From a virus, in the IMG/VR virus record IMGVR_UViG_3300047300_000501, positions 10,203 through 74,202 of that record: a DNA stretch of 64,000 nucleotides. One strand, 5' to 3'. Positions 1 to 39,994 of this stretch are shown here, in pieces. The notes below the pieces were generated by a model, which worked only from the letters and a program-made list of their open reading frames with translations, was not told the origin of the DNA and searched no databases. Numbering within the stretch: the first letter of the stretch is position 1; the number at the start of each line of letters is the position of its first letter. Both the position numbers and the translations under genes were made by a program.

Positions 1-600
1 ACACCGTATTCTTTCTCAACTACAACTTATGGAGTTAAGTGTATTTCTGGAAATACATTTATTAGACTTGCTCCAGGCAAAGGTATCGAACAAACAGATA
101 TTCTTACAGGTAAAAAATATCTTATGAATGATAATAATGAAATTATTGCAAAACAGGCAAAAGATATTCAGATTGGTGATGAAGTCATGACTGTTCAATA
201 TGCTGAAGTTGATCAGTCTTCCCCAGACTATGCAGTATTTGAGTGGAACTCTGACTCTCTTACATTTGTTTCAAATTCAACAACAACTATTACTGATATT
301 GAAGAATCCGCTAAGTTCCAAACAGTTTACATTAATGGCGACCAGTCAGCACAGTTTACTTTAGAACATCCAATTCTTACAAATAAAATCATTAATGGTG
401 TTCCTTCTTGGAAGTTTGCAATGGTAGCAGAACTTGAAGTAGGAGATATAATTGTTAAATATAACAATGAAACTGGACTATATAACAATGTAGAAATAAC
501 ATCATTAGACATAATGTCAAACTTAGACCCAGTTTATACCTTCAGTGCTGAGCCAGGTGATATAATTGTTGCAGGCGATATTATAACTCACAATAAGTAA
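1..600 (+). CDS. C-terminal part of Hint (intein-like/BIL) domain precursor, paralog of 10858..12216; truncated by left window edge
   Basis: Frame 1 is open from base 1: TPYSFSTTTYGVK-C(40..42)ISGNTFIRL...AKQAKDIQIGD...FTLEHP...VYTFSAEPGDIIVAGDIITHNK*. Motifs closely match 10858..12216. The 124 start in the ORF track is internal. Confidence 0.9.
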   Translation, partial: TPYSFSTTTYGVKCISGNTFIRLAPGKGIEQTDILTGKKYLMNDNNEIIAKQAKDIQIGDEVMTVQYAEVDQSSPDYAVFEWNSDSLTFVSNSTTTITDIEESAKFQTVYINGDQSAQFTLEHPILTNKIINGVPSWKFAMVAELEVGDIIVKYNNETGLYNNVEITSLDIMSNLDPVYTFSAEPGDIIVAGDIITHNK

Positions 601-612
601 GGGGTAATACTT

Positions 613-822
613 ATGTCAGAAAAGAAAAGGTCTGTAAAACCTTGGGACTTGCTTAACCCAAGCAAAGACCACGCAACTGATGAAGAAGCACAAAAAAGAT
701 ATGATATCTGTGATTGGTGTCCAGAATTTATTTCTTTAACTAAACAATGTAAAAAATGCGGATGTTTTATGAATTTAAAAGTTAAGTTGCAAGAAGCCTC
801 ATGTCCTTTAGGAAAATGGTAA
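613..822 (+). CDS. small Cys-rich metal-binding protein (DUF6171-like)
   Basis: RYDICDWC...QCKKCGCFM..K..L..ASCPLGKW pattern; purine-rich SD (aagggg) upstream. Confidence 0.7.
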   Translation: MSEKKRSVKPWDLLNPSKDHATDEEAQKRYDICDWCPEFISLTKQCKKCGCFMNLKVKLQEASCPLGKW

Positions 823-908
823 TGATAAAGATATTTAAAAGTATAATGTTTAGGTACAAAGAAAAAAGAAAGTATAAAAATATTAAAAGATCTAATTGGA
901 TTTACTAA
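822..908 (+). CDS. 28-aa basic microprotein (not in ORF track)
   Basis: MIKIFKSIMFRYKEKRKYKNIKRSNWIY*; TAATG stop/start overlap with both neighbouring genes. Confidence 0.6.
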   Translation: MIKIFKSIMFRYKEKRKYKNIKRSNWIY

Positions 909-1837
909 TGCTATTTGATATTTTTAAAACTGGCATTATTCCACATAATAGACCAGAAACAAAAGACAAGACAAGCGTACTTGTTACGCATGCAGAAATA
1001 GATAGGCCAGAGTACAGTTATGACTGGAATTCAGATGGCATTAGGTCTGTTGAATTTAGCACAAAGCCAAGTATTGTTGCTTTAGGATGCTCGATTACTT
1101 TGGGTCAGGGTCTTCCAGTAGAACTCAGGTGGACAGAACTTTTAGCAAAAAAACTAAACAAAACAGTAGGAAATATATCTTATAGTGGTGGATCTGCAGC
1201 ACAAGTTATTTCTAGTTTTTTTGGAATGATCGACAAATATAATTATAAGCCAGAATATGTTATTGCTAACCTTCCGCCATTTGAAAGATTTTATTTTATT
1301 GACGGTAAAGGTGAAAAAATGAAAGACTATTGGTTAGGTAATAAGCCTAGAAAAACAAAAGATCAGGCTCCTTGGGATTATGGTGCAACAATCCCATACG
1401 AGTGGGTTTATTATAATAATCTAAACCATATCAAGATGTTAGAAGTTTTTTGCAAAGCAAATGATATTAAGTTAATTTGGTCAACCTGGAGCAATGCGTT
1501 GTCTCAAGAACACGAGTCATTTTTGTTAGATAATTTTGAAGGATATGTTGTAGATACTGTTAAAAAGCAGTTTCCACCACACTTTGAGTTTTATGTTAAT
1601 CCAAAAGAAGTTGATGGGCTTTTACCATTTTATAAAATGAATAATTGGGATAATATAAAATGTCATATTAAAGAAAGCCTAGACACCCCTGACATTTTTG
1701 ATTATGCTTATGATTATCATAAAATAGGCAGGGCACCAGATAGAGATGTGACCAGAACACCACATCCAGGTGTGCATAAACATATACATTGGGCAGAGTT
1801 TTACTTTGATATAATTAAATCTATGGAGACAGAATAA
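908..1837 (+). CDS. SGNH/GDSL-like hydrolase or acyltransferase
   Basis: Block I-like ALGCSITLGQG, NISYSGGS, C-terminal PHPGVHKHIHWAE; start 908 is coupled to the upstream stop. Confidence 0.6.
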   Translation: MLFDIFKTGIIPHNRPETKDKTSVLVTHAEIDRPEYSYDWNSDGIRSVEFSTKPSIVALGCSITLGQGLPVELRWTELLAKKLNKTVGNISYSGGSAAQVISSFFGMIDKYNYKPEYVIANLPPFERFYFIDGKGEKMKDYWLGNKPRKTKDQAPWDYGATIPYEWVYYNNLNHIKMLEVFCKANDIKLIWSTWSNALSQEHESFLLDNFEGYVVDTVKKQFPPHFEFYVNPKEVDGLLPFYKMNNWDNIKCHIKESLDTPDIFDYAYDYHKIGRAPDRDVTRTPHPGVHKHIHWAEFYFDIIKSMETE

Positions 1838-2430
1838 TGGATAGGATTGAGTTGGCACCTGGAATTATGTCTTATAAAAAAGTCATAAATCAAGAAACCC
1901 CATTAGACAAACAGATAGAGTTTGCAATGAGTAAAATTGGTTTAAACTGGGAGCCAGCATATGTAAGGACAAATGGTGAAAATATGATAGATAAGAGTGC
2001 TAGGGATACAGGTAGTTTCTTTATCAACTCCTACGACCATCTTATTGACAATCACTCAACACCAATAGACTCCTTTTTTACATTATTATCTAATTTATTT
2101 TTAAATAAGTTTAAACCAATACATGAGGATTATAAGAATTATTATCAAATATCTACAAAAACACAAGAGGCTTATAGTATTCTAAAATATGGAATTGGTC
2201 AAAATTTTATTAATCATATAGACGATCTAGATAACACGAGAAAAATTTCTATGGTTTATTATATAAATGATGAATACACTGGGGGAGAAATTGTTTTTCC
2301 TAGGTTTGGTTTAAACTATAAGCCACAAGCAGATGAAATGATTATGTTTCCTTCTACATACGTCTACAATCACTCAGTTCTTCCTGTGGTTGAAGGAAAC
2401 AGGTATGCTGTAGTTAGTTGGTTAAGATGA
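1837..2430 (+). CDS. 2OG-Fe(II) oxygenase, prolyl 4-hydroxylase-like
   Basis: HID, RKISMVYYINDEYTGGEIVF, FPS.Y.YNHSVLPV..GNRYAVVSW (HxD...H...R). Confidence 0.9.
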   Translation: MDRIELAPGIMSYKKVINQETPLDKQIEFAMSKIGLNWEPAYVRTNGENMIDKSARDTGSFFINSYDHLIDNHSTPIDSFFTLLSNLFLNKFKPIHEDYKNYYQISTKTQEAYSILKYGIGQNFINHIDDLDNTRKISMVYYINDEYTGGEIVFPRFGLNYKPQADEMIMFPSTYVYNHSVLPVVEGNRYAVVSWLR

Positions 2431-4049
2431 TAGATACTTTATCTTGTCGCTCAATTCATCAAGAAAAGTTTTTAGATTATGAATTTGATACTGTATGTAT
2501 TAATAACTTTACTATAAAAAATGATGATGGACCAATAATAAATGTACCTGGAGAAACTTATTTGTTTCATACAGATGCTGCCTTTGGTCACTCATTAATG
2601 GATATTTATGCACAGTTTAAAATTTTACAGTTAAAATATAAAAAGATAAAGCCATTTTTTTATGAAACACATGATAGAAGATTTAATCAAAATAAAATAA
2701 CAATAGATCAAATGAGTTCTCTTGGATATGAAAATCCAACGGTTTTCAATATTTCAGTTGGAAATTATTCTTTTGAAAAAGTTATAATGTTTTTTGATAT
2801 GAATCTTACATTTCCACAAGAGTTTTACTCAAACAACGGTGCTACAAGATCACTGTTCTATTTTCCTTTTTGTGACTGTCCAGTGGGATCATTACCATCT
2901 AATCTACCGTGTGGCCAAAGTGAGCACTTTAAGTATAACTACTTAGCAATAGATATTCTAAAGCAAAGTTTTAAAGAATTTTTTAGTGATAGTAAAACAG
3001 AAAATATTTTTGTTTCAAGAGAAAGATATAATAAAAGACATAAGGAGCAAATTGAACTTTATTCCAATAAAGAGTCTTTATCAGACAAAGAGAAGGAATG
3101 GTATTGGTTTGCTAAATGGAGATATTCTGAAAAAGATGAGTACATACAACAAATGTTTAAAGACAGCGGGTATACCATTATCTACCCAGAAGATCATAGC
3201 CTAATAGAACAAATAAAGATATTTAGTTCTGCAAAAAATATTGCAGGGCTTTCTGGCACTTGGTTGTTTAATTCTTTTTGGGGAAACAAAGAAACTAATG
3301 TGTTTGAAATTTCAGCAGTTCCAAATCACAGATATCATTATAAACAGTTTGCAGACTATGCTGGGGTAAATCATTCTTATATTAATGTTGTTGGATTGTC
3401 AGAAGAAGAAACAAAAACCGTCATTCAGGAAAGTATTGATAAAATGCATAAAGATACCTCACCAATTATAGTTCCAGTAATTAATTTTGACCTTATTCAG
3501 CAAGCAATTGATGAAAAGAGAATTCATATATTTAAAAATGTTTTTCCAAAATTGCCATCATTGGATTCAATCATGTCTATGGTTTCTCAGTTTGTTGATG
3601 AAGACCTAGAAAAATTTCCAGATAGATCATATCTGTTAAGTGATTTTGTTGAAGGTGAGTCTTCTGATATGAGGCTTAAGTGTAGATTTTGGTCAAGGCT
3701 TGCACTTCAACTTTACGATCCAGAAGATAAATATTTATCAATTATTCCAGAACTGCTTCCAGTAACTGAATGGGGCCTTTCTCAATATTCCGCAGAAGTC
3801 TATGATGGAAACTTTGCACTAGTCTCACTTATGAAGAACCGTGGGGTAGTTGGAAGTAAACATAGCGACTATGTAGATCAATTTCAGTGGGTAGTTAAGG
3901 GAGAGATGATCTGGCGCACAGGTGAAACTCTAGAAAACGAGTATCATGTTGTAGAGGGTGACTTTATCTTTATACCAAAAAACTTGGTTCATGAGGTTGA
4001 AACCATCAAGGCACCAAGAGTAGCAATTAATTTAATTTTAAGAAACTAA
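2427..4049 (+). CDS. GT61 (DUF563)-like glycosyltransferase fused to C-terminal JmjC/cupin hydroxylase
   Basis: N-part: FGHSLMD, IFVSRER, PEDHSLIEQIKIFSSAKNIAGLSG..LFN. C-part: KHSDYVDQFQWVVKGEMIWR...GDFIFIPKNLVHEVET. ATGA overlap at 2427. Confidence 0.75.
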   Translation: MIDTLSCRSIHQEKFLDYEFDTVCINNFTIKNDDGPIINVPGETYLFHTDAAFGHSLMDIYAQFKILQLKYKKIKPFFYETHDRRFNQNKITIDQMSSLGYENPTVFNISVGNYSFEKVIMFFDMNLTFPQEFYSNNGATRSLFYFPFCDCPVGSLPSNLPCGQSEHFKYNYLAIDILKQSFKEFFSDSKTENIFVSRERYNKRHKEQIELYSNKESLSDKEKEWYWFAKWRYSEKDEYIQQMFKDSGYTIIYPEDHSLIEQIKIFSSAKNIAGLSGTWLFNSFWGNKETNVFEISAVPNHRYHYKQFADYAGVNHSYINVVGLSEEETKTVIQESIDKMHKDTSPIIVPVINFDLIQQAIDEKRIHIFKNVFPKLPSLDSIMSMVSQFVDEDLEKFPDRSYLLSDFVEGESSDMRLKCRFWSRLALQLYDPEDKYLSIIPELLPVTEWGLSQYSAEVYDGNFALVSLMKNRGVVGSKHSDYVDQFQWVVKGEMIWRTGETLENEYHVVEGDFIFIPKNLVHEVETIKAPRVAINLILRN

Positions 4050-4095
4050 AAGGCACCCACAATAATATTTCTACTACCATAGGTGCCTTTAGTTT
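4045..4095 (-). terminator. intrinsic terminator between convergent genes
   Basis: Minus-strand RNA AAAGGCACCUAUGGUAGUA-GAAA-UAUUAUUGUGGGUGCCUUUU; the outer stem also forms on the + strand followed by a T-rich tract. Confidence 0.8.
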
Positions 4096-4659
4096 TTACT
4101 TAGGAAATTTATTCATCAATCTTTTGGTTTTTGGTGTCAATCCATGCCAAGAGGACCAATCTTCTCCACCGTTGGACATATGAAAAGCAACCTGTGCATT
4201 AATTACAGGGTTAAAAAGGTCCTGGTTATCACTTAGTTCAAACTTCTCAATACGATCTGGCCCAAGATCTCTAATCATATTGATCTGAAATAGTCCATAA
4301 GACTTATCCCCAGTCTTACCATTACCATTAAAAGCATAAGGTCTTCCATTAGACTCTTTCTTTGCTACTGCCCAAGCCTCAACTAGGTTCTTTCCACGAA
4401 ACCCTACCTGAAATAGCAAGTCTTTGAGTTCTAGATCTGTTAAAGAATCCTTACTAACGTATTTTGATAGTTTATATATATTAGCAGTCTTAGAAACCAA
4501 AAAAGCCCCAGAAGGGGCTGCCACGGGCTGGACCTGTTCACTCGTTTTAGTTTCAGGCTTAACAGTTGTAGCGTTAGCATTATTTGAAAAAACGGCAAAA
4601 ATGCCAGTGACCGTAAGTATTCCGATGATTACTTGTTCCTTAAATTTCTCGTTCATCAT
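4096..4659 (-). CDS. lysozyme-like / lytic transglycosylase (SLT-type) with N-terminal signal/anchor
   Basis: AVAKKESNG (catalytic Glu), DKSYGLFQIN, LFNPVINAQVA, DWSSW; hydrophobic N-terminus; SD aaggagg before ATG 4659. Confidence 0.85.
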   Translation of the reverse strand: MMNEKFKEQVIIGILTVTGIFAVFSNNANATTVKPETKTSEQVQPVAAPSGAFLVSKTANIYKLSKYVSKDSLTDLELKDLLFQVGFRGKNLVEAWAVAKKESNGRPYAFNGNGKTGDKSYGLFQINMIRDLGPDRIEKFELSDNQDLFNPVINAQVAFHMSNGGEDWSSWHGLTPKTKRLMNKFPK

Positions 4660-4707
4660 AGTTTCCTCCTTAGAAAACAATAACACCTTGGTAGGTGTCT
4701 AGTATTA

Positions 4708-9004: not shown

Positions 9005-10834
9005 ATGGCAACTAGAATGCAACAACGCAGAGGTACTGCACAGCAATGGACTGACGCAGACCCAATTTTGGCAGCAGGAGAAATTGGATTTGAAACAGAT
9101 ACCAACCAGTTTAAGATTGGTGATGGCGTAAATGCATGGTCAGATCTCTCCTATTTTAAGAACTTAGAAGATCTTGGCGGATCTTTAGATGACTATGTTC
9201 CAGTTAGCACAAAGGGTCAAGCAAACGGTGTAGCCGAACTTGATTCAACAGGAAACGTTCCAATGTCTCAACTTGGAAACATTATTGATGGTGCACCAGC
9301 AGCACTTGACACACTCAACGAAATCTCAACACTTCTTGGTGATGGGTCAAGCCTTGGAGCATCAGTAGTTTCATCTTTAAACGCACTTGATACAGCGCTT
9401 GCAAACCACGCAGACAATACAAGCACTGCTCATGGAATGGTGATTGCAGACCTCGCAACACATACTTATGTAGCCGATGCAATAACAACACATGCGTCAG
9501 ATACTACAGGTGTACACGGTATTGCAGATATGTCTGCACTAGCAACATCAGAGTATGTTGGTGATACAGTTGGAGCACACAACCTAGATACAACACAGGT
9601 GCACGGAATTGAAGATACAGCAGAACTTGCTACAAAAACATATGCAAATAATGCAGTGTCAACACACCAAGCAGATACAACAAATGTTCACGGTATTGCA
9701 GATACATCTGCTCTTGCACTATCTGTAGATGTAACATCTGAAATTGCAGCACACTCTGCAGATACAACAGATGTTCATGGAATTACAGATACAGCAAACC
9801 TTGTCTATACATCTGACTCACGCCTTTCAGATGAAAGAACCCCTTCTGCGGGTTCTGTAACAGCAGCAAAGATTGCAGCAGATGCAGTAGAAACAGCAAA
9901 GATTGCTGACGGTGCAGTAACAAATGCAAAACTTGCAGATGATGCAGTAGATACTTTAGAAATCAAAGATTTAGCAGTTACAAATGCTAAGTTAGCAGGA
10001 TCAATTGCACAGTCTAAGATTACTAATCTAGAGACAGACATTGCTTCAAAGCAAGACAAGGTAACTGGAGTTTCAGATACTGAGATTGGGTACCTTGATG
10101 GAGTTACATCAGCAATCCAGACACAGATCAATGGAAAGGCTTCTCTTTCTGGAGCAACCTTTACAGGTGATGTTACAGTTGAAACCAACCTTACAGTTGA
10201 TGGAAACCTTACAGTAACAGGAACAACTACAACAGTTTCTGCACAAGATCTTGTTGTGTCTGACCCACTGATCTATATCGGTGAAGGAAATACAGCAAAC
10301 CTTGTTGACCTAGGTCTTGTATCATCTTTCAACGATGGAACCTACCAGCATGCAGGTATTGCTCGTGATGCTTCTGCTGGAAAGTGGAAGATCTTTAAGG
10401 GTGTAACTGATGAACCAACAACTACAATTAACTTTACACAGGGATCACTTGATGACCTTGCAGTTGGTGCTCTTGAGGCAACAACAGTTACTCCATCTTC
10501 TGGAATAGTTTTCTCAGATGGCACACAAACAAAGGTTGGAGTTCCATCTATAACAACTTTTGCAACAGCAATTTCTTCTAGCGCAACACTTGCAACAGGA
10601 GAGCAGGATAAGTTTGTTCCACTAACTGGAGCAGTTACAATCACTCTTCCTGCAACAGGATACTCTACTGGGCAGTCAATTGACTTCTATCAGGCTTCAG
10701 GTACTGGTGCACAGTTTGCTTCAACCAACAGCGTTGTAGGCACACCAGGACTAAAGTTCAGAACTACAAACTCAGTAGTAACAGCAATGAAGACTCCAAC
10801 TGGATGGTTAGTCTTCGGAGATTTGTCAGCATAA
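9005..10834 (+). CDS. tail fibre protein with Mtd_N/hyaluronidase-type N-terminal domain
   Basis: MQQRRGTAQQWT...ILAAGEIGFETDT..FKIGDG; GAPAALDTLNEI; His repeats; AVT.AK[IL]A repeats; C-terminal WLVFGDL. Confidence 0.8.
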   Translation: MATRMQQRRGTAQQWTDADPILAAGEIGFETDTNQFKIGDGVNAWSDLSYFKNLEDLGGSLDDYVPVSTKGQANGVAELDSTGNVPMSQLGNIIDGAPAALDTLNEISTLLGDGSSLGASVVSSLNALDTALANHADNTSTAHGMVIADLATHTYVADAITTHASDTTGVHGIADMSALATSEYVGDTVGAHNLDTTQVHGIEDTAELATKTYANNAVSTHQADTTNVHGIADTSALALSVDVTSEIAAHSADTTDVHGITDTANLVYTSDSRLSDERTPSAGSVTAAKIAADAVETAKIADGAVTNAKLADDAVDTLEIKDLAVTNAKLAGSIAQSKITNLETDIASKQDKVTGVSDTEIGYLDGVTSAIQTQINGKASLSGATFTGDVTVETNLTVDGNLTVTGTTTTVSAQDLVVSDPLIYIGEGNTANLVDLGLVSSFNDGTYQHAGIARDASAGKWKIFKGVTDEPTTTINFTQGSLDDLAVGALEATTVTPSSGIVFSDGTQTKVGVPSITTFATAISSSATLATGEQDKFVPLTGAVTITLPATGYSTGQSIDFYQASGTGAQFASTNSVVGTPGLKFRTTNSVVTAMKTPTGWLVFGDLSA

Positions 10835-10857: not shown

Positions 10858-12216
10858 ATGTCAAAACAAGCAGGTAGAATGAGCCAGGGAGCAAATGACT
10901 TCTTGGCACCGTACGCTCCAACAATTGGAACAGCAACCAACGTTCCAGCAGGAAGAGCATACAACAATGGACGGGTAGATGTAACATTTACTCCTGACCC
11001 AATCAATGCAGCAACATCATTTACTGTGACATCTTCTCCTGGAGGTTATACTGCAACTGGTGCTTCTTCTCCAATTTCAGTTACAGGTTTACAATCATCA
11101 GTGGCTTATACATTTACTGTTACAGCAACTAATGACGCAGGAACCTCAGCACCGTCTGCAGCATCAAATAGCGTTACAGCGACAACAGTCCCTGCAACAC
11201 CAACTGCACCAAGTGCTTCTTCTCCGTCAGCAGGTGTAGACTCAGTTTCATGGTCTGCACCAGCAGATGGTGGATCAGCGATTACAAATTACCACTGGGA
11301 ATCAAATGACTCAAAGTCAGGAGATACAGCATCTACATCAGTAAGCGTTGGACAGGAGCAGGGTACAGCACAGGCTTATCGTGTTTATGCAACAAATGCT
11401 AATGGTAACTCAGAATACTCTTCATACTCTGGAACAGTAACTACAACATTTTCATTTGTTCCATTTGGCGTGTTTGGTTTCTCACCATTTGGTTTCTCAC
11501 CATTTGGTTTTTCACCATTCTCATTCTCTCCATTTGGGTTCTCTCCGTTTGGGTTTTCTCCGTTCTCATTCTCACCATTTGGTTTCTCACCGTTCTCATT
11601 CTCACCATTTGGATTTTCTCCTTATGGATTCTCTACAACAACATACGGTGTAAAGTGTATTGATGCTAATACATTTATTAGAGTAAAGACTGGACTTGGT
11701 GTCGAGTCTACTGATCCAGAAACTGGCAAGGTAACTCTTAAAGATGCATCAGGACAAGTAGTTGCTAAGCAAGCAAAAGATATTCAGGTTGGAGATACAG
11801 TTCTTTCAGCAGACTATGCCGAAATTGACCCATCATCTCCAGATTACGAAGTCTTTAACTGGTCTTCTAACTCACTATCTTTTATTAATCACTCAGAAAC
11901 CACAATTACTGACATTGAAGAAACAAATAAGATTCAAACTATTTACTTCAATGGTGATCAATCAGCACAGTTTACATTAGAGCACCCAGTTCTAATTAAG
12001 AGAAATACTGCTGGAGCAATTAGTTATGGTTTTGCTATGGTTGCAGAAGTTCAGGTTGGAGATGCTATTCTAAAGTATAGCCCAACATCAAACTCATATA
12101 TTGAGACAGATATTACATCTATCGACATATCTTCTGGACAAAAGGTAGTCTATACTTTTAGCGCAGAACCAGCAGATCTTATTATTGCTGGTGACATCGT
12201 TACTCACAATAAGTAG
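10858..12216 (+). CDS. FN3-domain protein with (FSPF[G/S])x10 array and C-terminal Hint domain
   Basis: Two FN3-like units (VTGLQSSVAYTFTVTATN.AG.S; VSWSAPADGGSAITNY...YRVYATNANGNS), the repeat array, then K|C(11656)IDANTFI...TLEHP...DIVTHNK*. Confidence 0.9.
   Translation: MSKQAGRMSQGANDFLAPYAPTIGTATNVPAGRAYNNGRVDVTFTPDPINAATSFTVTSSPGGYTATGASSPISVTGLQSSVAYTFTVTATNDAGTSAPSAASNSVTATTVPATPTAPSASSPSAGVDSVSWSAPADGGSAITNYHWESNDSKSGDTASTSVSVGQEQGTAQAYRVYATNANGNSEYSSYSGTVTTTFSFVPFGVFGFSPFGFSPFGFSPFSFSPFGFSPFGFSPFSFSPFGFSPFSFSPFGFSPYGFSTTTYGVKCIDANTFIRVKTGLGVESTDPETGKVTLKDASGQVVAKQAKDIQVGDTVLSADYAEIDPSSPDYEVFNWSSNSLSFINHSETTITDIEETNKIQTIYFNGDQSAQFTLEHPVLIKRNTAGAISYGFAMVAEVQVGDAILKYSPTSNSYIETDITSIDISSGQKVVYTFSAEPADLIIAGDIVTHNK
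11479..11628 (+). repeat. 10 x 15-bp coding tandem repeat, FSP[F/Y][G/S]
   Basis: FSPFG FSPFG FSPFS FSPFG FSPFG FSPFS FSPFG FSPFS FSPFG FSPYG, with synonymous codon variation; degenerate FVPFG at 11455. Confidence 0.95.
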
Positions 12217-12221
12217 CGTGT

Positions 12222-12893
12222 ATGCGTGGGGACAGACATCCTAAGCCATCTGAATTTTGGCTAAGCACTTATGACATGTCTTTTTCAGACATTGTTAATA
12301 AAAGTAACTGCAATCGGTTATTTGTAGAGTATCAGCATGTATTAAAAAACGATGCTGTAAAAAACTCTATACTAAAGCCAGTAAATGACTACGCTTATAA
12401 TTTATATCCTGCGCCAGAGTTTCTTAAGTATGAGGATGGATATGTATATTTAAGGCAGAGAACGCATGCAGAGATATGGGTCAAACTAGATTATACTCTA
12501 GGTGTTTATTTTTTAGACAGACCACATATTAGGCAGTTTTATTGTTCAGATAAAATACTTAAAGCAGATAATACATTTTTATCTACATACAGATTTTATA
12601 ACCCATGGTTTTTTGACCTTAACAGAGAGTATGAAATAGTTGCTGTACATGATGAATTTACCCCCTTTGTAATAGAAGAGTTAGTTGTGCCAATTTTCAA
12701 CACTAATGTCACTATCCTTGAGCCAAATTTTACTCATTTTTTGTTTAAAAAGAGCGGGGACCATATGCTGGATCCAACTCATGGTAAAATTAGTATAGGA
12801 ACTCCTATGTATGACATGAAGATAAAAGTAAATGACAAGGAACTTAAGTCATTAAAAGATTTTTATTCAACATATAAGTTTCACAGATTCTAA
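12222..12893 (+). CDS. hypothetical protein, divergent relative of the two following genes
   Basis: RFYNPWFF and GKISIGTPMYDMKI echo INPMWSV and GIIEKGTPIAQVIP of 12908. Confidence 0.5.
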   Translation: MRGDRHPKPSEFWLSTYDMSFSDIVNKSNCNRLFVEYQHVLKNDAVKNSILKPVNDYAYNLYPAPEFLKYEDGYVYLRQRTHAEIWVKLDYTLGVYFLDRPHIRQFYCSDKILKADNTFLSTYRFYNPWFFDLNREYEIVAVHDEFTPFVIEELVVPIFNTNVTILEPNFTHFLFKKSGDHMLDPTHGKISIGTPMYDMKIKVNDKELKSLKDFYSTYKFHRF

Positions 12894-12907
12894 AGAAAAG
12901 GAAGAGT

Positions 12908-13627
12908 ATGCCAAACATAGAGTTTCACCCTTGGAGCGACGACGCTGAAGGTTTGATTGATAAGCCTACGCCAACACATAGAAATGTTCCAGAGTGGTAC
13001 AGAAAGCAACCAGCATACGTAAACAAAGAAGATTTTCTTAAAAAGGGTATTTCTGGTTCAACAATAAAGAAGTGTATGCCAGTCTTTGATGCTATGACAG
13101 CGGGGTATACTTTGTATTGTCCACTAGATATTTATGTAGATGCAACAGATCCAAATAAATTAGAGTATAACATCCCTATAGCCGTTGCTGGCTTTAAAAA
13201 AGAATTGTTTACCACACACTCACCAGAGCAAACTACTCACTATCCAATGCCGTCATATGTTCATAAGGATGTTCTTAGAATTAATCCAATGTGGTCAGTT
13301 AAAACATCTCCTGGCTATAGTTCATTGTTTATTAAGCCAATGCATCAAGAGCATCAGCCTTTTGAATTAGTACCAGGAATTATTGATACAGATACCTATG
13401 TTAGTGAAGGGTTCTTATCTTTTAAGATTGAGAGTAGTTTTAAAGGCATAATTGAAAAAGGAACACCTATTGCTCAAGTCATTCCATTCAAAAGAGAGAA
13501 TTGGCAAAGTCAACATATAGAATATAAAGATTCTAAAGAGGGTCAGAAAAAGCAAAGAATGCTCGTGAGAAGTAAGTTTTTTAATTATTATAAGAAAAAC
13601 TTTTGGCACAAAAAGGAATGGCATTGA
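12908..13627 (+). CDS. DUF6065-related / dUTPase-like-fold protein
   Basis: PEWYR, TIKKCMPVFDAMTAGY, W.VKTSPGYSSLF..P, PGIIDTD, KGTPIAQVIPFKRE.W. Confidence 0.55.
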   Translation: MPNIEFHPWSDDAEGLIDKPTPTHRNVPEWYRKQPAYVNKEDFLKKGISGSTIKKCMPVFDAMTAGYTLYCPLDIYVDATDPNKLEYNIPIAVAGFKKELFTTHSPEQTTHYPMPSYVHKDVLRINPMWSVKTSPGYSSLFIKPMHQEHQPFELVPGIIDTDTYVSEGFLSFKIESSFKGIIEKGTPIAQVIPFKRENWQSQHIEYKDSKEGQKKQRMLVRSKFFNYYKKNFWHKKEWH

Positions 13628-14355
13628 GTAAAAAGATAAAGTTTCATCCAACATCTTTAGAGATGTATGATAATTTTGACATACTTCATCCTGAACCAGC
13701 AATCAAACACATACCTGAATGGTATAAGGATTTAGCCCAACATTATGATACAAATAATGTAGAGTTTTTAAACCCAGTGAATGATCGTGGAACAGATGGT
13801 GCCAATGTTTCTACTAAAATGTGCTATCCATTTAGAGATGCTATGACTGCTGGGTACGTTTATCGATTAACCCAAGACATAGAGGTTACATTGAGTCCAG
13901 ATGGCAAACCAGAACTATCTTGGGAGTATGATTCCTTAATGATGCTTGACAAGAGGTATATCCTAGATATGGTTCCACCAGAGGGCTGCCACCCTGTTCA
14001 TTTTGGTCTAAGAATGCATTGGTATTATGAAACGCCACCAGGATACTCTGTTTTAATTACCCACCCAATGAATAGGTATGATCTGCCTTTTACAATTCCT
14101 TCAGGAATCATTGAGTCAGACCTGATGGGTATTCCAGTATTTCTATCATTTTTTCTAAAGAAGAATTTTATTGGTACAATCCCAAAGGGAACCCCACTAT
14201 TTCAAATAATACCTTTTAAAAGAGAAGACTGGGAGATGGAAGTAAGCCTAGACCCAGAAGAGATATTACAAAAAGAATACGACCTTGAAAATAGAAGAAC
14301 TAGATTATTTGCATACTATAAAAAGTTTGCATGGAGAAAGAAGAGTTACCTATAG
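13624..14355 (+). CDS. DUF6065-related protein, tandem paralog of 12908
   Basis: PEWYK, KMCYPFRDAMTAGY, ETPPGYSVLITHP, KGTPLFQIIPFKREDW; likely TTG start overlapping the upstream TGA. Confidence 0.55.
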   Translation: MSKKIKFHPTSLEMYDNFDILHPEPAIKHIPEWYKDLAQHYDTNNVEFLNPVNDRGTDGANVSTKMCYPFRDAMTAGYVYRLTQDIEVTLSPDGKPELSWEYDSLMMLDKRYILDMVPPEGCHPVHFGLRMHWYYETPPGYSVLITHPMNRYDLPFTIPSGIIESDLMGIPVFLSFFLKKNFIGTIPKGTPLFQIIPFKREDWEMEVSLDPEEILQKEYDLENRRTRLFAYYKKFAWRKKSYL

Positions 14356-14387
14356 TGTATAATAATAATATAGAAAAAGGAGCAAGC

Positions 14388-15011
14388 ATGAGAGAGCACA
14401 AATTCTTTGAAAGAATGCTAAATGCAGACACAGACCGTTTAGCGCATTACCTTGGTGAGCAATATCAAAAGATTGAAACACTAACTTTGCCAGGTATTCA
14501 GAAGTTAGGTCCAAATGAGGCATGGACAGAATCAGGAAGTTTATCTACAGTAAAGTGGAGAGAGTATAACGTCTTTCAATTTTTTCATCCAGATATTCAT
14601 AAACTATACAAGACAATTGGTGAAGTTGTTAGAGAGGCTTGTGAGTACTACCAGATTGATTTTGATTCACAAGAGTATATGGTTCAGGGATGGTTTAACA
14701 TTAACCATAAGAAGACTGGTAAGTTAGACTGGCACGATCATGGTGGGCCTTTTGCTCCACATTTTCATGGATTTTATTGCGTAAAGGCTGAGCCATCAAT
14801 TACTTACTATAGACTTTTTGGTGATCCAAACCGAGAGGTTGCAAATCACAATATTAATAATAGAATGATTGTTTCAGAAATGGGACACCCACATGCACAG
14901 GGTGACTGGGACTGGGATGGTCCAAGAGTGACTATTGCATATGACATTGTTCCTTTAAGATCTCTTGTCAATGTCGGCGCTTCAGAGCAGCATTGGATTC
15001 CATTATGCTAA
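14388..15011 (+). CDS. putative 2OG-Fe(II) oxygenase (HxH type, TIGR02466-like)
   Basis: GWFNIN, WHDH, FHGFYCV.AEPS.TYY, GHPH, PRVTIAYDI; SD aaggag before 14388. Confidence 0.65.
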   Translation: MREHKFFERMLNADTDRLAHYLGEQYQKIETLTLPGIQKLGPNEAWTESGSLSTVKWREYNVFQFFHPDIHKLYKTIGEVVREACEYYQIDFDSQEYMVQGWFNINHKKTGKLDWHDHGGPFAPHFHGFYCVKAEPSITYYRLFGDPNREVANHNINNRMIVSEMGHPHAQGDWDWDGPRVTIAYDIVPLRSLVNVGASEQHWIPLC

Positions 15012-15655
15012 CAGAAAAGAAACCACATAAGTTCTTTGAGCGATTTTTAGATAACGATGTAGAAGAGTTGTACGAGTATCTTGCAGATAAACAACAAGAT
15101 TTGCTTGAAGGAAAGGTTGGACAAATTCCACCAGAAGAACTAGCAAAGTACGATGAACATAATGGCGCAACAACACAATTAGGAATGCACTATAATGTTT
15201 TTGACTTTGACCATGTCGGAATCCGTAACCTTAAGGCTGCACTTGCAGATGCAGTAAAAGAAGCAAATGAGTACTACGGCGAAAACTTTGAAGAGAATGA
15301 TTATATGATTCATGGTTGGTATAACATGGATCCAAAAACACAAGGTAAAAAGGGTGTCAATCCTTTACAGAATGATGTGTTTTTTCATGACCATATGGGT
15401 GGAGAGGGTAGCCCTGTATTTCATGGGTACTACTGTGTAAATGCGGAACCATCAATCACTTACTATAAAATTGATGGTGTAACATTATTTGAAAATCATA
15501 ACAAGAATAACAGGGCTATTGTTTCAGAAACTGGTCATCCGCATGGAAGAGATGATTGGTTTGAAAATAAGCCAAGAATCACAATAGCCTACGACATAAT
15601 TCCTGCAAGAATGCTTGGAAATGTTGAGGGGCAAAATTGGCACAAACTGAAGTAA
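15005..15655 (+). CDS. putative 2OG-Fe(II) oxygenase, tandem paralog of 14388
   Basis: HKFFER.L, GWYNM, FHDH, FHGYYCVNAEPSITYY, GHPHG, PRITIAYDI. Confidence 0.65.
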   Translation: MLTEKKPHKFFERFLDNDVEELYEYLADKQQDLLEGKVGQIPPEELAKYDEHNGATTQLGMHYNVFDFDHVGIRNLKAALADAVKEANEYYGENFEENDYMIHGWYNMDPKTQGKKGVNPLQNDVFFHDHMGGEGSPVFHGYYCVNAEPSITYYKIDGVTLFENHNKNNRAIVSETGHPHGRDDWFENKPRITIAYDIIPARMLGNVEGQNWHKLK

Positions 15656-16512
15656 AACACGGTAAGATTCTTGTACATATCTACTCTTATAAAGAGAGAA
15701 ATCTTTTAGATTTTGTAGAAAGTATCATCAATAAAAGTTCTGGTATTAACGCTATTGACATATACGTAACTGATCAGAACAATCTTACAAGACTAAGACA
15801 ATTTGTTCCTTATAGCAATGTTAGGTATGACGTTGTTTGGTGGGATGAGTTTTTAAGTCCTAATATTTATATTCAAAAAACAATAAGCGAAAATGCCTAT
15901 AAGCAGTATGATTATGTATTACTATTAAAGCAACATGTTGAATTCAAGAATGGTTGGGATACAGATTTAGTTGGTCTGCTACCTGAAGATGGTGTTATTT
16001 CTGGCCAGGGCAAATTTAGACTATCTATAGATAAAAACTTTTATATCAAAAAGGATAAAAGAATATCTAGAGAACTTGTTAGTACTGGATTTATAGATAG
16101 AAACTTTATCTTTGCTAAATTTAAAGATATTAGAAATATTATATTTCCATATGAATTAAAGTACTATGGTGATGAAGAGTATCTCTCTATACAGTTTTTA
16201 AATAACGGTCTTGATATTTTTGCACTCCCAACAGATTACTACACTGTAATGTCTAAGCCAATTCATGAAAGAGGATACGTTCCATTTTCTCTAAACCATA
16301 ACTACAACGAAGTGGTCTCTTTACTTAAAGAGAACAGGACATCTAGGCTTCCATACAAAGATCCATCTAAATTCTTACAATTGATTGGTCTTGACCTAAC
16401 AAACTTACATAGGTTGCCGTTTGACTTCAATGATATTGAGTACGATAGATTTTCTAGTTTGGATAAAACTGGTGGCAAGAGATATATTGAAAGATTAAAC
16501 TCAGTATCATAA
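15637..16512 (+). CDS. GT-A glycosyltransferase, GT60 (hydroxyproline GlcNAc-transferase, Gnt1)-like
   Basis: ILVHIYSYKE (cf. IFVSIASYRD), KQHVEF..GWD (cf. DSH.RF...WD), YYGDEEYLS......G.DIFALP (cf. F.GEE.......G.D...P). Confidence 0.6.
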   Translation: MAQTEVKHGKILVHIYSYKERNLLDFVESIINKSSGINAIDIYVTDQNNLTRLRQFVPYSNVRYDVVWWDEFLSPNIYIQKTISENAYKQYDYVLLLKQHVEFKNGWDTDLVGLLPEDGVISGQGKFRLSIDKNFYIKKDKRISRELVSTGFIDRNFIFAKFKDIRNIIFPYELKYYGDEEYLSIQFLNNGLDIFALPTDYYTVMSKPIHERGYVPFSLNHNYNEVVSLLKENRTSRLPYKDPSKFLQLIGLDLTNLHRLPFDFNDIEYDRFSSLDKTGGKRYIERLNSVS

Positions 16513-18639: not shown

Positions 18640-19170
18640 ATGGAGGACTACGTGTCACAGATACATCACTTTAAGGCATTCATGAAGCCAGAAGATGCTG
18701 AAAAAATACATCAGCATGCTGTAAAGTTTAGTGATAGTTTTAATATGCATGGAAACAATGAAAAAGAATTTAAGGTCTACACCTATCATGAGATTGAAAA
18801 AGATGATAGACAAATTTTAGATCTTATGCAGTATTATGCCCTTAAGGTTTATAATCATGTAAAAGAAACATATGGTGGTCCATTCTTAGAATTCAATCCA
18901 CACAAAACACACTTTGCACGTTTTGAAGAGGGACACGGAATGCATAGTCACTACGATGCTTCTAGGCCAAATGATATTGCTACTGTTTTATATTTAAATA
19001 GTAACTACGATGGAGGAGAGATTTATTTTCCAGAGTATAACATAGAAATAAAGCCAGAGCCAGGAGATCTTCTATGTTTTCCAGATGAACCACACTTTGT
19101 TCATGGGGTAAAGCCAATTCTTAAGGGTACTAGATATACAACACCACGCTGGTTTCCACGCATAGTATGA
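18640..19170 (+). CDS. 2OG-Fe(II) oxygenase, prolyl 4-hydroxylase-like
   Basis: HSHYD, TVLYLNSNYDGGEIYFP, FVHGVKPI..GTRYT..RW. Confidence 0.9.
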   Translation: MEDYVSQIHHFKAFMKPEDAEKIHQHAVKFSDSFNMHGNNEKEFKVYTYHEIEKDDRQILDLMQYYALKVYNHVKETYGGPFLEFNPHKTHFARFEEGHGMHSHYDASRPNDIATVLYLNSNYDGGEIYFPEYNIEIKPEPGDLLCFPDEPHFVHGVKPILKGTRYTTPRWFPRIV

Positions 19171-39353: not shown

Positions 39354-39994
39354 TGACATCTGCAAACTATATGCTTGGTAGAAAGAAGTATGCAAGACCA
39401 CAAGGTATGCTTTGGGCAGACAACTCTGGAACACTTGTTAATGGAATTTATGTACCAAATGGATATGAAGTAAATTCAGATACAGGATCTGAAACAGATA
39501 CAAGTACATTTAATCAGTTTATTATTCTTTCAGACGACAATAGAGCACCACTTTCATTTGCCCCTACAAGAATTGAAAAAAGAGAGCGAATGGTTAATGG
39601 TCGCATGCGCTCAACACATATAGCAGATAAGTTAACTCTATCGACAAGTTGGACTCTATTACCATCTAGATCACACTATGTCAATCCAGACTTTAATTCT
39701 TCTACTGGTAAATCATCCTACGCAGGTAATAACTCATTTGAGTATACATCTGATGCAGGTGCAGGTGGAGTAGAGATTTTAGACTGGTATGAAAATCATA
39801 AAGGATCTTTTTGGGTTTATCTGTCATACGATAAGTACTCTAACTTTGGTAAAGATGATAATGCCTACGGACATTTAGACCAGTATAGCCAAATTATCGA
39901 GATGTTCTTTGCAGATTTTTCTTATTCAGTTGAAAAGCGTGGTGGGACTAATCATGATCTTTGGAATATTTCTGTTACCCTGGAAGAAGCATAA
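39353..39994 (+). CDS. distal tail / minor tail protein
   Basis: Follows the TMP; RERMVNGRMRS, WNISVTLEEA. Confidence 0.65.
   Translation: MTSANYMLGRKKYARPQGMLWADNSGTLVNGIYVPNGYEVNSDTGSETDTSTFNQFIILSDDNRAPLSFAPTRIEKRERMVNGRMRSTHIADKLTLSTSWTLLPSRSHYVNPDFNSSTGKSSYAGNNSFEYTSDAGAGGVEILDWYENHKGSFWVYLSYDKYSNFGKDDNAYGHLDQYSQIIEMFFADFSYSVEKRGGTNHDLWNISVTLEEA

Follow-up and report, generated by a model that had tools for sequence, protein, structure and literature searches.

Two kinds of self-processing domain come close to the one described here. Bacterial intein-like (BIL) domains of type A, such as that of C. thermocellum (2LWY), and the BUBL domain BIL2 of Tetrahymena (6Y75/6TMM) have a Hint fold with Cys1, a T-x-x-H block, a terminal His-Asn and no Cys, Ser or Thr at position +1; they are embedded in variable, non-essential surface-type proteins, and are expected to cleave off or transfer the part N-terminal to them. 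Hedgehog/Hog autoprocessing domains (1AT0, 6TYY) are C-terminal Hint domains that cut themselves off an N-terminal "adduct" domain via a thioester, such that the N-part can be transferred to a nucleophile. In phages, self-removal of a C-terminal domain is known from Peptidase_S74, the intramolecular chaperone domain of tailspikes and fibres, which cleaves itself with a Ser-Lys dyad after doing its job. As for modifying enzymes, the cytoplasmic prolyl 4-hydroxylase (P4H) PhyA and the transferase Gnt1 (PF11397/GT60) carry out hydroxyproline glycosylation of Skp1 in Dictyostelium and Toxoplasma, and the P4H of chlorovirus PBCV-1 acts on viral Pro-rich repeats. The virion glycosylation operons of mycobacteriophages reportedly target C-terminal extensions of capsid and tail-tube proteins and are not known to contain hydroxylases, repeat arrays or Hint domains. 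As far as they are summarised in PMC12582341 (citing Freeman et al. 2023), these operons place phage glycosyltransferases beside structural genes and decorate the phage's own virion proteins, a likeness that at the present locus is predicted from the genes.

The window analysed here is a stretch of 64,000 nucleotides (positions 10,203 to 74,202 of IMG/VR record IMGVR_UViG_3300047300_000501). The phage is uncultured and comes from fresh water (a lake). Its host is probably an actinobacterium, a weak assignment, as the ribonucleotide reductase (RNR) shares 62% identity with the enzyme from a predicted actinophage MAG and a WhiB match falls below cut-off. The locus joins Hint-capped arrays to hydroxylase, sugar-transferase and esterase genes, a combination that we did not find in the literature. 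Its features are as follows.

1-600, plus strand: 3' end (199 codons) of a 494-aa gene, stop codon at 598-600; linker TPYSFSTTTYGVK at 1-39, catalytic Cys1 codon at 40-42, Hint/BIL-like domain at 40-594
613-822, plus strand: Cys-rich (CxxC...CxxC) DUF6171-like protein, 69 aa (PHROG 13558, E=5e-17)
822-908, plus strand: micro-ORF with a very basic product of 28 aa (start at ATG 822, TAATG overlap) or, if ATG 801 is the start, of 35 aa
908-1837, plus strand: SGNH-hydrolase-fold enzyme, 309 aa from the ATG at 908 (TAATG overlap) or 313 aa from the TTG at 896
1837-2430, plus strand: 2OG/Fe(II) oxygenase of prolyl-4-hydroxylase type (PF13640), 197 aa (2OG-FeII_Oxy_3, E=4.8e-15)
2418/2427-4049, plus strand: GT61 glycosyltransferase (N-terminal ~345 aa) joined to a cupin-fold oxygenase (C-terminal ~195 aa)
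4049-4090, no strand: 19-pair hairpin separating the operon from the convergent SLT gene (intergenic distance 46 nt)
4096-4686, minus strand: SLT_3 lysozyme-like protein with an N-terminal hydrophobic segment
10858-12216, plus strand: paralogue with a Pfam fn3 domain, about ten F-S-P-F-G units, linker SPYGFSTTTYGVK and a Hint domain ending in THNK and a stop
12222-16512, plus strand: island of enzyme and unknown genes behind the paralogue

Frame 1 from the first base reads TPYSFSTTTYGVK followed by CISGNTFIR...THNK and a stop, as the sequence-only reading had it. The complete gene occupies 9318-10802 of L003 (G000:C1) and starts 884 nt before the window, the frame remaining open for 295 codons up to its ATG. 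That reading had expected an FN3 domain and a [F/Y][S/T]P[F/Y][G/S] array beyond the left edge. Neither FN3 nor an F/Y-S-P-F-G array is present in the 10 kb of the record upstream of the window; repeat arrays are indeed there, but the protein runs, from N- to C-terminus, through a PASTA domain (E=7.8e-9), about 12 VTP units, a six-Cys module, about seven VTP units, a four-Cys module, about 13-14 VTP units, the linker and the Hint domain. The residues TPYS, which had been taken for the last array unit, actually open the conserved linker, which comes after the (VTP)14 tract.

The gene at 10858-12216, directly 3' of an Mtd_N-type fibre gene, bears this Hint cap too, in a second fibre slot. Its C-terminal part reads SPYGFSTTTYGVK followed by CIDANTFIR...THNK and a stop, and BLASTP of the two full proteins gives 120 identities in 200 positions (60%) with 0 gaps (E=3e-84), the similarity beginning exactly at the linker PY.FSTTTYGVKC. 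This alignment bears out the suggestion that the two genes are paralogues and have the linker and the Hint domain in common; indeed, the 13 residues before the catalytic Cys are identical at 11 positions, versus 59-60% identity for the Hint domain. Cys1, T-L-E-H and the terminal H-N-K-stop are intact in both copies. In four separate lineages the Hint domains of the two slots within one genome are each other's closest relatives, which suggests that the two caps have a common function.

We are confident that the C-terminal domain has a Hint fold and is closest to BIL domains. A profile of 45 homologues matched 2LWY (E=1.9e-11), with inteins next, while no Pfam Hint family reached its cut-off for this domain (the best being Intein_splicing, E=0.0025). 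The AF2 model of the domain (pLDDT 92.2, falling to only 42 in linker residues 1-10) had Tetrahymena BIL2, 2LWY, mini-inteins and Hedgehog HhC as top Foldseek matches, each with a probability of 1.0. The features listed above for BIL domains all recur here, but the phage domain is strictly C-terminal with a single residue after the Asn, is encoded by a phage within the tail-fibre block, is always preceded by low-complexity arrays, and has about 35 extra residues inserted after block A. Unlike Hedgehog/Hog domains, it has no sterol-recognition region, keeps the intein-type terminal His-Asn and belongs to a bacterial virus; Peptidase_S74 is similar in logic but unrelated in fold and chemistry (a Hint thioester versus a Ser-Lys dyad), with no similarity of sequence or fold seen. 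Since the domain has Cys1, T-x-x-H and the terminal H-N (within T-H-N), with a single Lys (595-597) before the stop codon, it is predicted to be capable of cleavage or transfer and incapable of splicing.

Five genes joined through TAATG, TAATG, TAATG and ATGA overlaps follow the 494-aa gene; the gap before the first of them is 12 nt long and contains a GGGG Shine-Dalgarno sequence. The sequence-only reading had recognised the Cys-rich protein, the microprotein, the SGNH, P4H-like and GT61 proteins, their coupling and a terminator, and as to the genes it stands; the domain fused to GT61 is a cupin, whose assignment to JmjC was not confirmed. The first of the genes matches DUF6171 below Pfam's cut-off (E=4.9e-5) and has a paralogue upstream on the minus strand (L003 3295-3495). 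In L043 DUF6171 is fused to a PF11397 glycosyltransferase, and the protein therefore probably serves the modification machinery as an accessory or recognition subunit. The micro-ORF is conserved at 54-71% in L004, L005 and L011/L013. The SGNH-fold protein has no Pfam match; its AF2 model (pLDDT 89.6) matches TesA and acetyl-xylan esterases in Foldseek (E about 1e-5), its block I, G-C-S, is invariant (the Ser being residue 66 of the 313-aa form), and its more than 130 uncultured homologues are all unannotated. Probably it acts as an esterase or O-acyl-transferase on a glycan or protein. By sequence, the closest solved structure to the oxygenase is the prolyl 4-hydroxylase of Bacillus anthracis. 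In the last protein the GT61 part (E=5.5e-12) is joined to a cupin with an invariant H-x-D...H; the two are separate genes in L060, and the cupin part occurs alone, ~80% conserved, in many relatives. The hairpin is probably a bidirectional terminator. Beyond it lies the SLT_3 gene, which closes the variable slot on the right in every related locus. The island behind the paralogue, listed here for comparison, encodes one protein of 223 aa, a pair of DUF6065 proteins, two His-rich paralogues of 220 and 226 aa, and a 291-aa protein (15637-16512) that matches PF11397 weakly, below cut-off, and is the only PF11397-like gene of the window.

Comparison with some 60 related uncultured phage contigs agrees with the earlier view that this neighbourhood is not due to chance, and that each of the paralogous genes is followed by tightly packed, predicted protein-modifying enzymes. 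The two slots are fixed at the same positions of a syntenic tail-fibre block, and both Hint genes lie directly 3' of fibre or adaptor genes ending in W-L-x-x-G-D-L. What does not hold is a fixed enzyme set for each module, as the set is a variable island in which only the DUF6171 protein, mostly first in order, is near-universal. Only close relatives retain the SGNH protein; P4H, cupin and glycosyltransferases (GT61, or the GT60-like "GlcNAc" transferases of PF11397) come and go; the slot may also hold O-FucT-like proteins, NDP-sugar epimerase/dehydratases or, once (L063), a radical-SAM/SPASM enzyme. Glycosyltransferases were recognisable in 7 of 12 lineages with a Pro/Thr-tract protein in slot A versus 0 of 4 with Phe-Gly arrays only, a manual tally over related contigs that are not independent samples. 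The link between array and enzymes is thus a loose one, since even phages whose Pro/Thr tracts are similar differ in their islands: the L004/L005 island has no P4H and L016/L019 have no enzymes at all.

We consider it probable, with moderate confidence, that the 494-aa protein is a tail-fibre appendage whose Hint cap is removed and whose Pro/Thr-rich stalk is modified by the island; that the enzymes tailor the repeat is in itself plausible. Alternatively, the neighbouring enzymes might act elsewhere, for instance on a collagen-like fibre protein, on further proteins of the virion or on the envelope of the host, or might be auxiliary metabolic or secondary-metabolite genes in a hypervariable region. 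The phage encodes a collagen-like G-X-Y protein (L003 6151-6888) 2.4 kb upstream of the Hint gene, and collagen is an equally classical P4H substrate; a further P4H gene lies beside the RNR, far from any array. Phage dioxygenase arrays have been read as secondary-metabolite genes (Iyer et al. 2010, PMC2938197), and the variability of the island and the lack of enzymes beside the array-Hint genes of L016 and L019 fit this alternative. Nevertheless, the island is always immediately 3' of the array gene, with mutually coupled genes, across roughly two dozen lineages, and NRPS, PKS and small-molecule scaffold genes are not present. Moreover, the pairing of P4H with PF11397-type transferases (E down to 2.6e-39 in the same slot of relatives) beside Pro-rich tracts is that of the Skp1 enzymes, although in the window the neighbour of P4H is GT61 fused to a cupin, and modification is predicted from the genes. 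We regard this alternative as unlikely.

Rather than merely cleave, the Hint domain could ligate, the Lys-Cys1 thioester being attacked by an amine, either a Lys of another virion protein or an amine of the cell wall or of lipid II; PASTA might bring the latter close, and the glycosylated stalk would be covalently attached through its C-terminus. BIL2 of Tetrahymena, among the closest structures, is reported to conjugate its N-extein to other proteins by a Lys-epsilon isopeptide (PMC8616854). The array-Hint proteins have PASTA or FN3 binding domains at the N-terminus and no visible virion-attachment domain there, so that C-terminal attachment would make topological sense; the linker is more strongly conserved than the Hint domain, and the co-evolution of the two Hints would be expected with a shared partner. 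Gene conversion may also explain that co-evolution, however; no acceptor candidate was identified, and no docking surface was seen because of the low confidence of the linker in the model. Furthermore, L021, L037, L043, L045, L048-50 and L054 have in this position orthologues that stop directly behind the array and lack a Hint domain, and in L033, L043 and P0063 TP/FSPFG arrays and Cys modules are fused C-terminally to a fibre adaptor domain, and thus ligation is not essential to the appendage. The Hint-less orthologues suggest that the cap is removable, and we judge ligation to be improbable.

Still less probable, in our opinion, is a Hint domain retained as a non-catalytic distal knob, for example for binding. 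Distant family members often have Gln for the block-B His, and one clade has Ser for Cys1 and Asp for the terminal Asn, so not every member need be catalytically active and catalysis may be partly relaxed; but the intact motifs of both copies here, the conservation of H197 and N198 (at least 90% among the 45 diverse homologues) and the Hint-less forms all argue against it. Finally, the "precursor" of the sequence-only reading, in the sense of a RiPP-like chain from which each repeat unit would be set free as a core peptide and tailored to give a small bioactive peptide, recalls multi-core precursors superficially, in its tandem short units beside oxygenases and the radical-SAM/SPASM enzyme of one relative, but it is hardly credible, as there are no protease sites between units, no leader peptide, recognition element, peptidase or exporter gene, units such as VTP are simple linkers whose codons vary synonymously, the same chain also contains Cys modules and folded PASTA or FN3 domains, and array proteins that are adaptor-fused or Hint-less in relatives are better read as structural fibre parts.

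In the appendage that we favour, an N-terminal PASTA domain of the peptidoglycan-binding type would be followed by a stalk resembling mucins or extensins, in which two small Cys-rich modules break up three (Val-Thr-Pro)n tracts, then by the conserved 13-residue tail (PYSFSTTTYGVK) and the BIL-kind Hint domain. An N-to-S acyl shift at Lys-Cys1 would give a thioester, to be resolved by water (less likely by an amine) with loss of the cap, and the mature protein would then end in repeat and tail, like its Hint-less relatives. The five translationally coupled genes would be one version of a variable protein-modification island, with the Pro/Thr-rich stalk as its most likely substrate for hydroxylation, glycosylation and perhaps acylation, so that the phage may carry a whisker resembling a hydroxyproline-rich glycoprotein.

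From base 1 onward the first frame of the window is open, giving TPYSFSTTTYGVKCISGNTFIR...IITHNK up to a stop at 598-600, and a second gene (10858-12216, 452 aa) ends in SPYGFSTTTYGVKCIDANTFIR...IVTHNK; we call the positions of these two genes slot A and slot B. When the complete proteins are compared by BLASTP they align at 60% identity along 200 residues, with no gaps (E=3e-84). This similarity starts exactly at the PY.FSTTTYGVK linker, and upstream of the linker the same comparison gives no alignable similarity. The sequence-only reading, in which this genome held two paralogous Hint genes with a conserved linker, is thus confirmed from the linker onward. Since the window (bases 10203-74202 of a linear IMG/VR virus record of 74.2 kb) begins at record base 10203, the missing upstream portion of the slot A gene can be read: its ATG lies 884 nt before the window and its product has 494 aa. 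The N-terminal part carries a PASTA domain (PF03793, E=7.8e-9), and the protein has three Val-Thr-Pro tracts (about 12, 7 and 13 units) separated by two small Cys-rich modules (six and four Cys), the linker and C-terminal domain coming after the tracts. The tracts have a 9-nt period with nucleotide matches of only 75-79%, and so are kept at the protein level rather than being the product of fresh slippage. Neither an in-frame stop just before base 1 nor a lack of arrays, the outcomes that would count against the sequence-only reading, was found; the frame is open upstream and arrays are present. Its prediction of FN3 domains and a [F/Y][S/T]P[F/Y][G/S] array was nevertheless wrong, PASTA, Val-Thr-Pro tracts and Cys modules standing in their place, and TPYS, which it took for a variant repeat unit, is part of the linker. 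Its observation therefore stands, while its interpretation, two precursor-plus-tailoring modules, holds in part.

No Pfam Hint model matched the C-terminal domain above cut-off (Intein_splicing, E=0.0025). An exhaustive phmmer search gave 133 representative proteins; nearly every match reaches the C-terminus or stops a few residues short of it, and all members of the database clusters are called "hypothetical protein" or are unnamed. One representative (P0055, 2200 aa, "21 stretches") was rejected as a Hint homologue, being a repeat protein and a compositional false positive. In an alignment of 45 sequences (A1), Cys1 lies inside a C-[IV]-x-G-x-T block, block B reads F-[ST]-x-E-[HQ]-P, and a nearly invariant His-Asn (H197 and N198, each at least 90% conserved among the 45 homologues) is followed by 1-6 residues and the stop. 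The profile of these 45 sequences matches the Clostridium thermocellum bacterial intein-like (BIL) domain 2LWY (E=1.9e-11) and then many mini-inteins. The AlphaFold (AF2) model of the domain (pLDDT 92.2, pTM 0.87) is poor only in ten linker residues, and Foldseek pairs it with Tetrahymena BIL2 (6Y75/6TMM), 2LWY, mini-inteins and Hedgehog HhC at probability 1.0, with a TM of 0.62-0.79 on target; model, Foldseek and profile agree on a Hint beta-fold with pseudo-two-fold symmetry. Both copies retain all three catalytic hallmarks, namely Cys1 (window 40-42 in slot A), T-L-E-H (FTLEHP) and H-N (...THN). The domain has 186 aa without an endonuclease insert, and the terminal Asn is followed by one Lys and the stop, leaving no +1 nucleophile, so that splicing in the intein sense is impossible. 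To judge from these motifs and the predicted fold, the C-terminal domain of the slot A protein is a Hint domain of the BIL kind.

This domain, which we call the cap, is found on very different proteins. The near homologues (43 clusters at 90% identity) are of either a PASTA or an FN3 type, and their middle parts are shuffled independently of type; in PASTA-type proteins the array is (PAPTP)n, (TPxP)n, (VxPP)n or (FSPFG)n, and the sets of Cys modules differ. Among distant members the cap is also seen on KVNGxWK-repeat proteins, on large Ig/FN3-rich proteins and, in the representative P0063, on a protein whose N-terminus matches the fibre gene and adaptor of this phage (...WLVTGDL). We mapped the proteins of this phage (L003) onto 60 related IMG/VR loci (given by L numbers), and gene order was strongly conserved: collagen-like - 120 - 196 - fibre 239 - adaptor 207 - slot A, then variable genes - SLT lysozyme-like (minus strand) - 168 - 134 - 74 - 148, then fibre 674 - 151 - Mtd_N fibre - slot B FN3 array protein - variable genes, and at the end RNR - P4H - 1250-aa protein. 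In L033 and L043 the adaptor (...WVLFGDIY and ...WLVTGDLV) runs at its C-terminus straight into the slot A array, which has the same TP tracts and Cys modules and a terminal FSPFG array. The slot B protein exists in three states: with Cys1...H-N-K; in a clade whose position 1 is Ser and whose C-terminus is [FYH]-D followed by a short tail; and without Hint, ending a few residues past the array (L021, L037, L043, L045, L048, L049, L050 and L054). Its arrays use interchangeable low-complexity units (FSPFG, FGA, FFSPPG, even YNF). As the array can be fused to a fibre adaptor and can function without the cap, the array protein is best read, on this comparison, as a fibre appendage with Hint as a putative removable cap, rather than as a small-peptide precursor.

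Several observations on slot B and its surroundings may be added. The Ser-type clade (L028, L034, L039, L053, L055, L060 and others), in which [F/Y/H]-Asp replaces His-Asn-Lys, frequently carries (Phe-Gly-Ala)n arrays that lack proline and reach about 30 units, and L054 has a (Tyr-Asn-Phe)n array without Hint. In L025 (2329-3640) the FN3-array-Hint gene is present as two overlapping ORFs with the frame change inside the FSPFG array, which could reflect either misassembly of the repeat or a genuine frameshift. A His-rich 220/226-aa family (window 14331-15655, and 38 homologues in L013-L054), with invariant His135, His137, His146 and His188, lies alongside nearly all Ser-Pro-containing FSPFG arrays of slot B and none of the proline-free (FGA)n arrays; neither Pfam nor PDB yielded a homologue, even when the family was searched as a profile of 21 sequences. 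The fibre protein at 9005-10834 (609 aa) has an Mtd_N domain (E=1.7e-14), which in the DGR system of the Bordetella phage forms the N-terminus of the major tropism determinant. Further on there are two very long plus-strand ORFs, at 32421-39353 (2310 aa) and 39961-44292 (1443 aa).

What the cap does may be considered by comparison with known Hint systems. Type A BILs have an N-terminal Cys or Ser nucleophile, a block B T-x-x-H and a C-terminal His-Asn, lack a +1 nucleophile and a homing endonuclease, and reside in variable, non-essential host proteins. All of this is found here, the variable host protein being evident from N-terminal parts shuffled among PASTA, FN3 and fibre domains, and from sequence and fold the cap is predicted to act like a type A BIL or Hog domain. 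A thioester would form at the Lys-Cys1 junction and would be resolved either by hydrolysis, i.e. self-removal of the cap, or by transfer to another nucleophile. We regard cleavage by the cap, together with a structural role of the array protein, as the probable outcome. What speaks for ligation by the cap is that Tetrahymena BIL2 reportedly joins its N-extein to the side chains of Lys residues (PMC8616854), although we think it unlikely that the cap is a one-shot, ATP-independent ligase working through the Hint thioester. If it were, the stalk would be hydroxylated and glycosylated in the cytoplasm before transfer and would then be joined, via its conserved ...TTTYGVK C-terminus, to a Lys of a virion protein or, alternatively, to a host cell-wall amine bound by the PASTA domain; the outcome would be a covalently anchored, sugar-coated whisker, much as BIL2 conjugates ubiquitin-like domains. 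The array could also be seen as RiPP-like. RiPP precursors, however, consist of a short leader and core, with cleavage sites around the cores and a dedicated peptidase or exporter, and here we have a 494-aa multidomain protein without inter-unit sites, arrays that in relatives are fused to fibre domains, and a cassette in which no peptidase or transporter gene was found, which makes this reading very improbable. A canonical intein, with a C-extein starting with Cys, Ser or Thr in a conserved host protein, is ruled out by a C-extein of a single Lys, with no +1 nucleophile and no host protein for splicing to restore, and a Hedgehog/Hog domain, with a sterol- or adduct-recognition region after Hint and no terminal His-Asn, by a protein that ends one residue past His-Asn without such a region.

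The slot A gene is followed by a cassette of five genes:

613-822: CxxC...CxxC protein, DUF6171-like (PHROG 13558)
822-908: micro-ORF, very basic, conserved in close relatives
908-1837: protein of predicted SGNH-hydrolase fold (AF2 model, Foldseek, profile)
1837-2430: P4H-type 2OG oxygenase (PF13640, E=4.8e-15; nearest solved structure, Bacillus anthracis P4H)
2427-4049: GT61 fused to a cupin with invariant HxD...H

Starts and stops overlap throughout (TAATG, TAATG, TAATG, ATGA), and a 19-pair hairpin separates the end of the operon from the convergent SLT gene. The oxygenase at 1837-2430 scores 56.7 bits against a PF13640 cut-off of 27 and matches B. anthracis P4H (3ITQ/5HV0) with E=3e-4; having both features of the class, it is by sequence assigned to the prolyl 4-hydroxylase-type 2OG oxygenases. 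The protein at 908-1837 has no Pfam match and more than 130 homologues, all unannotated. Its model (pLDDT 89.6) retrieves TesA, CE2 and acetyl-xylan esterases in Foldseek (E about 1e-5), its profile matches an L1-like esterase (E=0.0013), and the family has an invariant G64-C65-S66 corresponding to the block I Ser; it is on these grounds a predicted SGNH/GDSL protein, an assignment made on fold and block I Ser, of which the block V His/Asp form no part. The GT61 half of 2427-4049 scores 46.6-48.4 bits against the PF04577 cut-off of 27, the match covering only the C-terminal 55 residues of the model. For the cupin half, Cupin_2 falls below the Pfam cut-off (E=2.8e-5), a PDB profile search gives only "cupin" (E=0.2), and neither returned a JmjC match. 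The two halves are separate genes in L060, and the cupin occurs without the GT61 half in many relatives, with unusually high conservation (about 80%). A second DUF6171-like gene (66 aa) lies at L003 3295-3495 (minus strand), in the early leftward region, and most related loci have a counterpart in the corresponding position, with 43-53% identity to the gene of the cassette.

Among the related loci, the stretch between the array and SLT genes forms a variable island. Nearly all of these loci have a DUF6171 protein and many have P4H-like oxygenases, while a cupin occurs in at least eight lineages and GT61 in three. Eight loci (L033, L037, L039, L042, L043, L053, L055 and L063) have PF11397 "GlcNAc" transferases (E=5e-16 to 3e-39), usually directly after a P4H; the Skp1 hydroxyproline GlcNAc-transferase belongs to this family. 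A P4H and a PF11397/GT60 transferase encoded together would form a Skp1-type hydroxyproline-glycosylation pair, and in the window PF11397 gives only a weak match, below cut-off, in the gene at 15637-16512 (E=0.0011 and 0.0096). O-FucT-like proteins and NDP-sugar epimerase/dehydratases are found in the islands of L006/L010 and L045. In L043 (1932-3140) the DUF6171 Cys module is fused to a PF11397 (GT60-like) transferase, which ties the small Cys protein of the window to glycosylation machinery and is the first functional context for DUF6171. A radical-SAM/SPASM enzyme is encoded in L063 (495-1499), directly after the DUF6171 gene and before the PF11397 transferase and an NDP-sugar epimerase.

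By manual tally, recognisable glycosyltransferases are present in seven of the 12 lineages with a Pro/Thr-tract slot A, versus none of the four with Phe-Gly arrays alone, and L016 and L019 (FSPFG array plus Hint) have no enzymes. Hydroxylated or O-glycosylated Pro/Thr regions occur in extensins, in mucins and in the Pro/Thr linkers of actinobacterial secreted enzymes. The pattern fits an island that would hydroxylate and O-glycosylate the Pro/Thr stalk, and falls short of proof because the contigs are related, their content varies, and a collagen-like protein is an alternative P4H substrate; that the enzymes act on the array we put at an even chance. The collagen-like protein (L003 6151-6888, 245 aa, about 3.3-4.1 kb before the window start) has a G-X-Y tract (PF01391, E=1.5e-8), stands at the head of the fibre block and is conserved in relatives, and either of the two P4H-type oxygenases of this phage could have it as substrate. 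The second of these (18640-19170; PF13640, E=2.4e-12) is away from any repeat gene and, in most relatives, directly follows a class II ribonucleotide reductase.

A maximum-likelihood tree built from 31 Hint domains pairs the slot A Hint with the slot B Hint of the same contig in L018 (73% identical, versus at most 48% to other genomes), L019 (76% versus 44%) and L026 (75% versus 36%); the L026 Hints are both of Ser type, with identical junctions. Every A and B copy from this phage's clade falls in one 100/100 clade, inside which A and B orthologue groups are distinct (A-B 59%, A-orthologues 80-81%, B-orthologues 65-72%). The paralogy is thus real, old and repeatedly homogenised or re-created, and the caps that a phage carries in its two slots evidently share one function. 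In L018, L019, L026 and the window, Hints, junctions and often the adjoining repeat units are far closer within a genome than orthologues are across lineages, a sign that the two loci, some 10 kb from each other, undergo gene conversion or evolve in concert. The linker, with 11 of 13 residues identical between the paralogues, is more conserved than the Hint domain, which suggests a separate role for the tail that is to become the C-terminus.

The nearest match to the ribonucleotide reductase (RNR) of this phage (62%) comes from "Actinomycetia phage DSL-LC01", assembled from a lake metagenome and with a predicted actinobacterial host, and mycobacteriophage RNRs come next. A PASTA domain fits a Gram-positive wall, and a WhiB match in the record is below cut-off. 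We may reasonably infer that this is a freshwater actinophage; identity as a T4-like cyanophage was dropped on the RNR and synteny results.

Neither megablast nor tblastn matched the Hint domain or the cassette in 50,697 deposited phage genomes, so none of the cultured phages among them carries either. A single-protein scan of GTDB genome contigs, which sees close relatives only and is not evidence of absence from cells, gave no relative. In the literature on Hint/BIL, P4H tail-fibre and Gnt1/Skp1 phage topics we found no description of Hint-capped phage fibre arrays. The glycosylation of mycobacteriophage virions is not known to involve hydroxylases, repeat arrays or Hint. That glycosylation itself is known (Freeman 2023, cited as ref. 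80 in PMC12582341). Phage dioxygenase arrays were noticed earlier and interpreted as secondary-metabolite genes, collagen-like and tail-collar proteins being proposed as substrates for bacterial clusters only (PMC2938197).

By sequence the system is widespread, and unannotated, in uncultured lake phages, and is both a new Hint family and a new use of a known kind of domain; a coupling of the cap to a self-tailoring enzyme island is plausible. Within the cultured-phage collection and literature searched, it is the first case of a Hint/BIL cap that is routine on phage fibre proteins. If cleavage is true, the cap would be a second way, unrelated to the one known from tailspikes, of making a C-terminal domain that removes itself; if ligation is true, it would be a naturally occurring device for joining proteins, of interest to biotechnology. 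The modular shuffling supplies a comparative series, of PASTA, FN3 or adaptor at one end, TP, FSPFG, FGA or FFSPP arrays, and Cys-type, Ser-type or no Hint. Lake and ocean phage genomes hold many "orphan" 2OG oxygenases and glycosyltransferases, which are usually filed as auxiliary metabolic genes or interpreted as genes of secondary metabolism (PMC2938197). For these, this locus and its approximately 60 relatives offer an alternative: the enzymes may tailor the phage's own fibre appendages, made of extensin- or mucin-like Pro/Thr repeats or of aromatic repeats.
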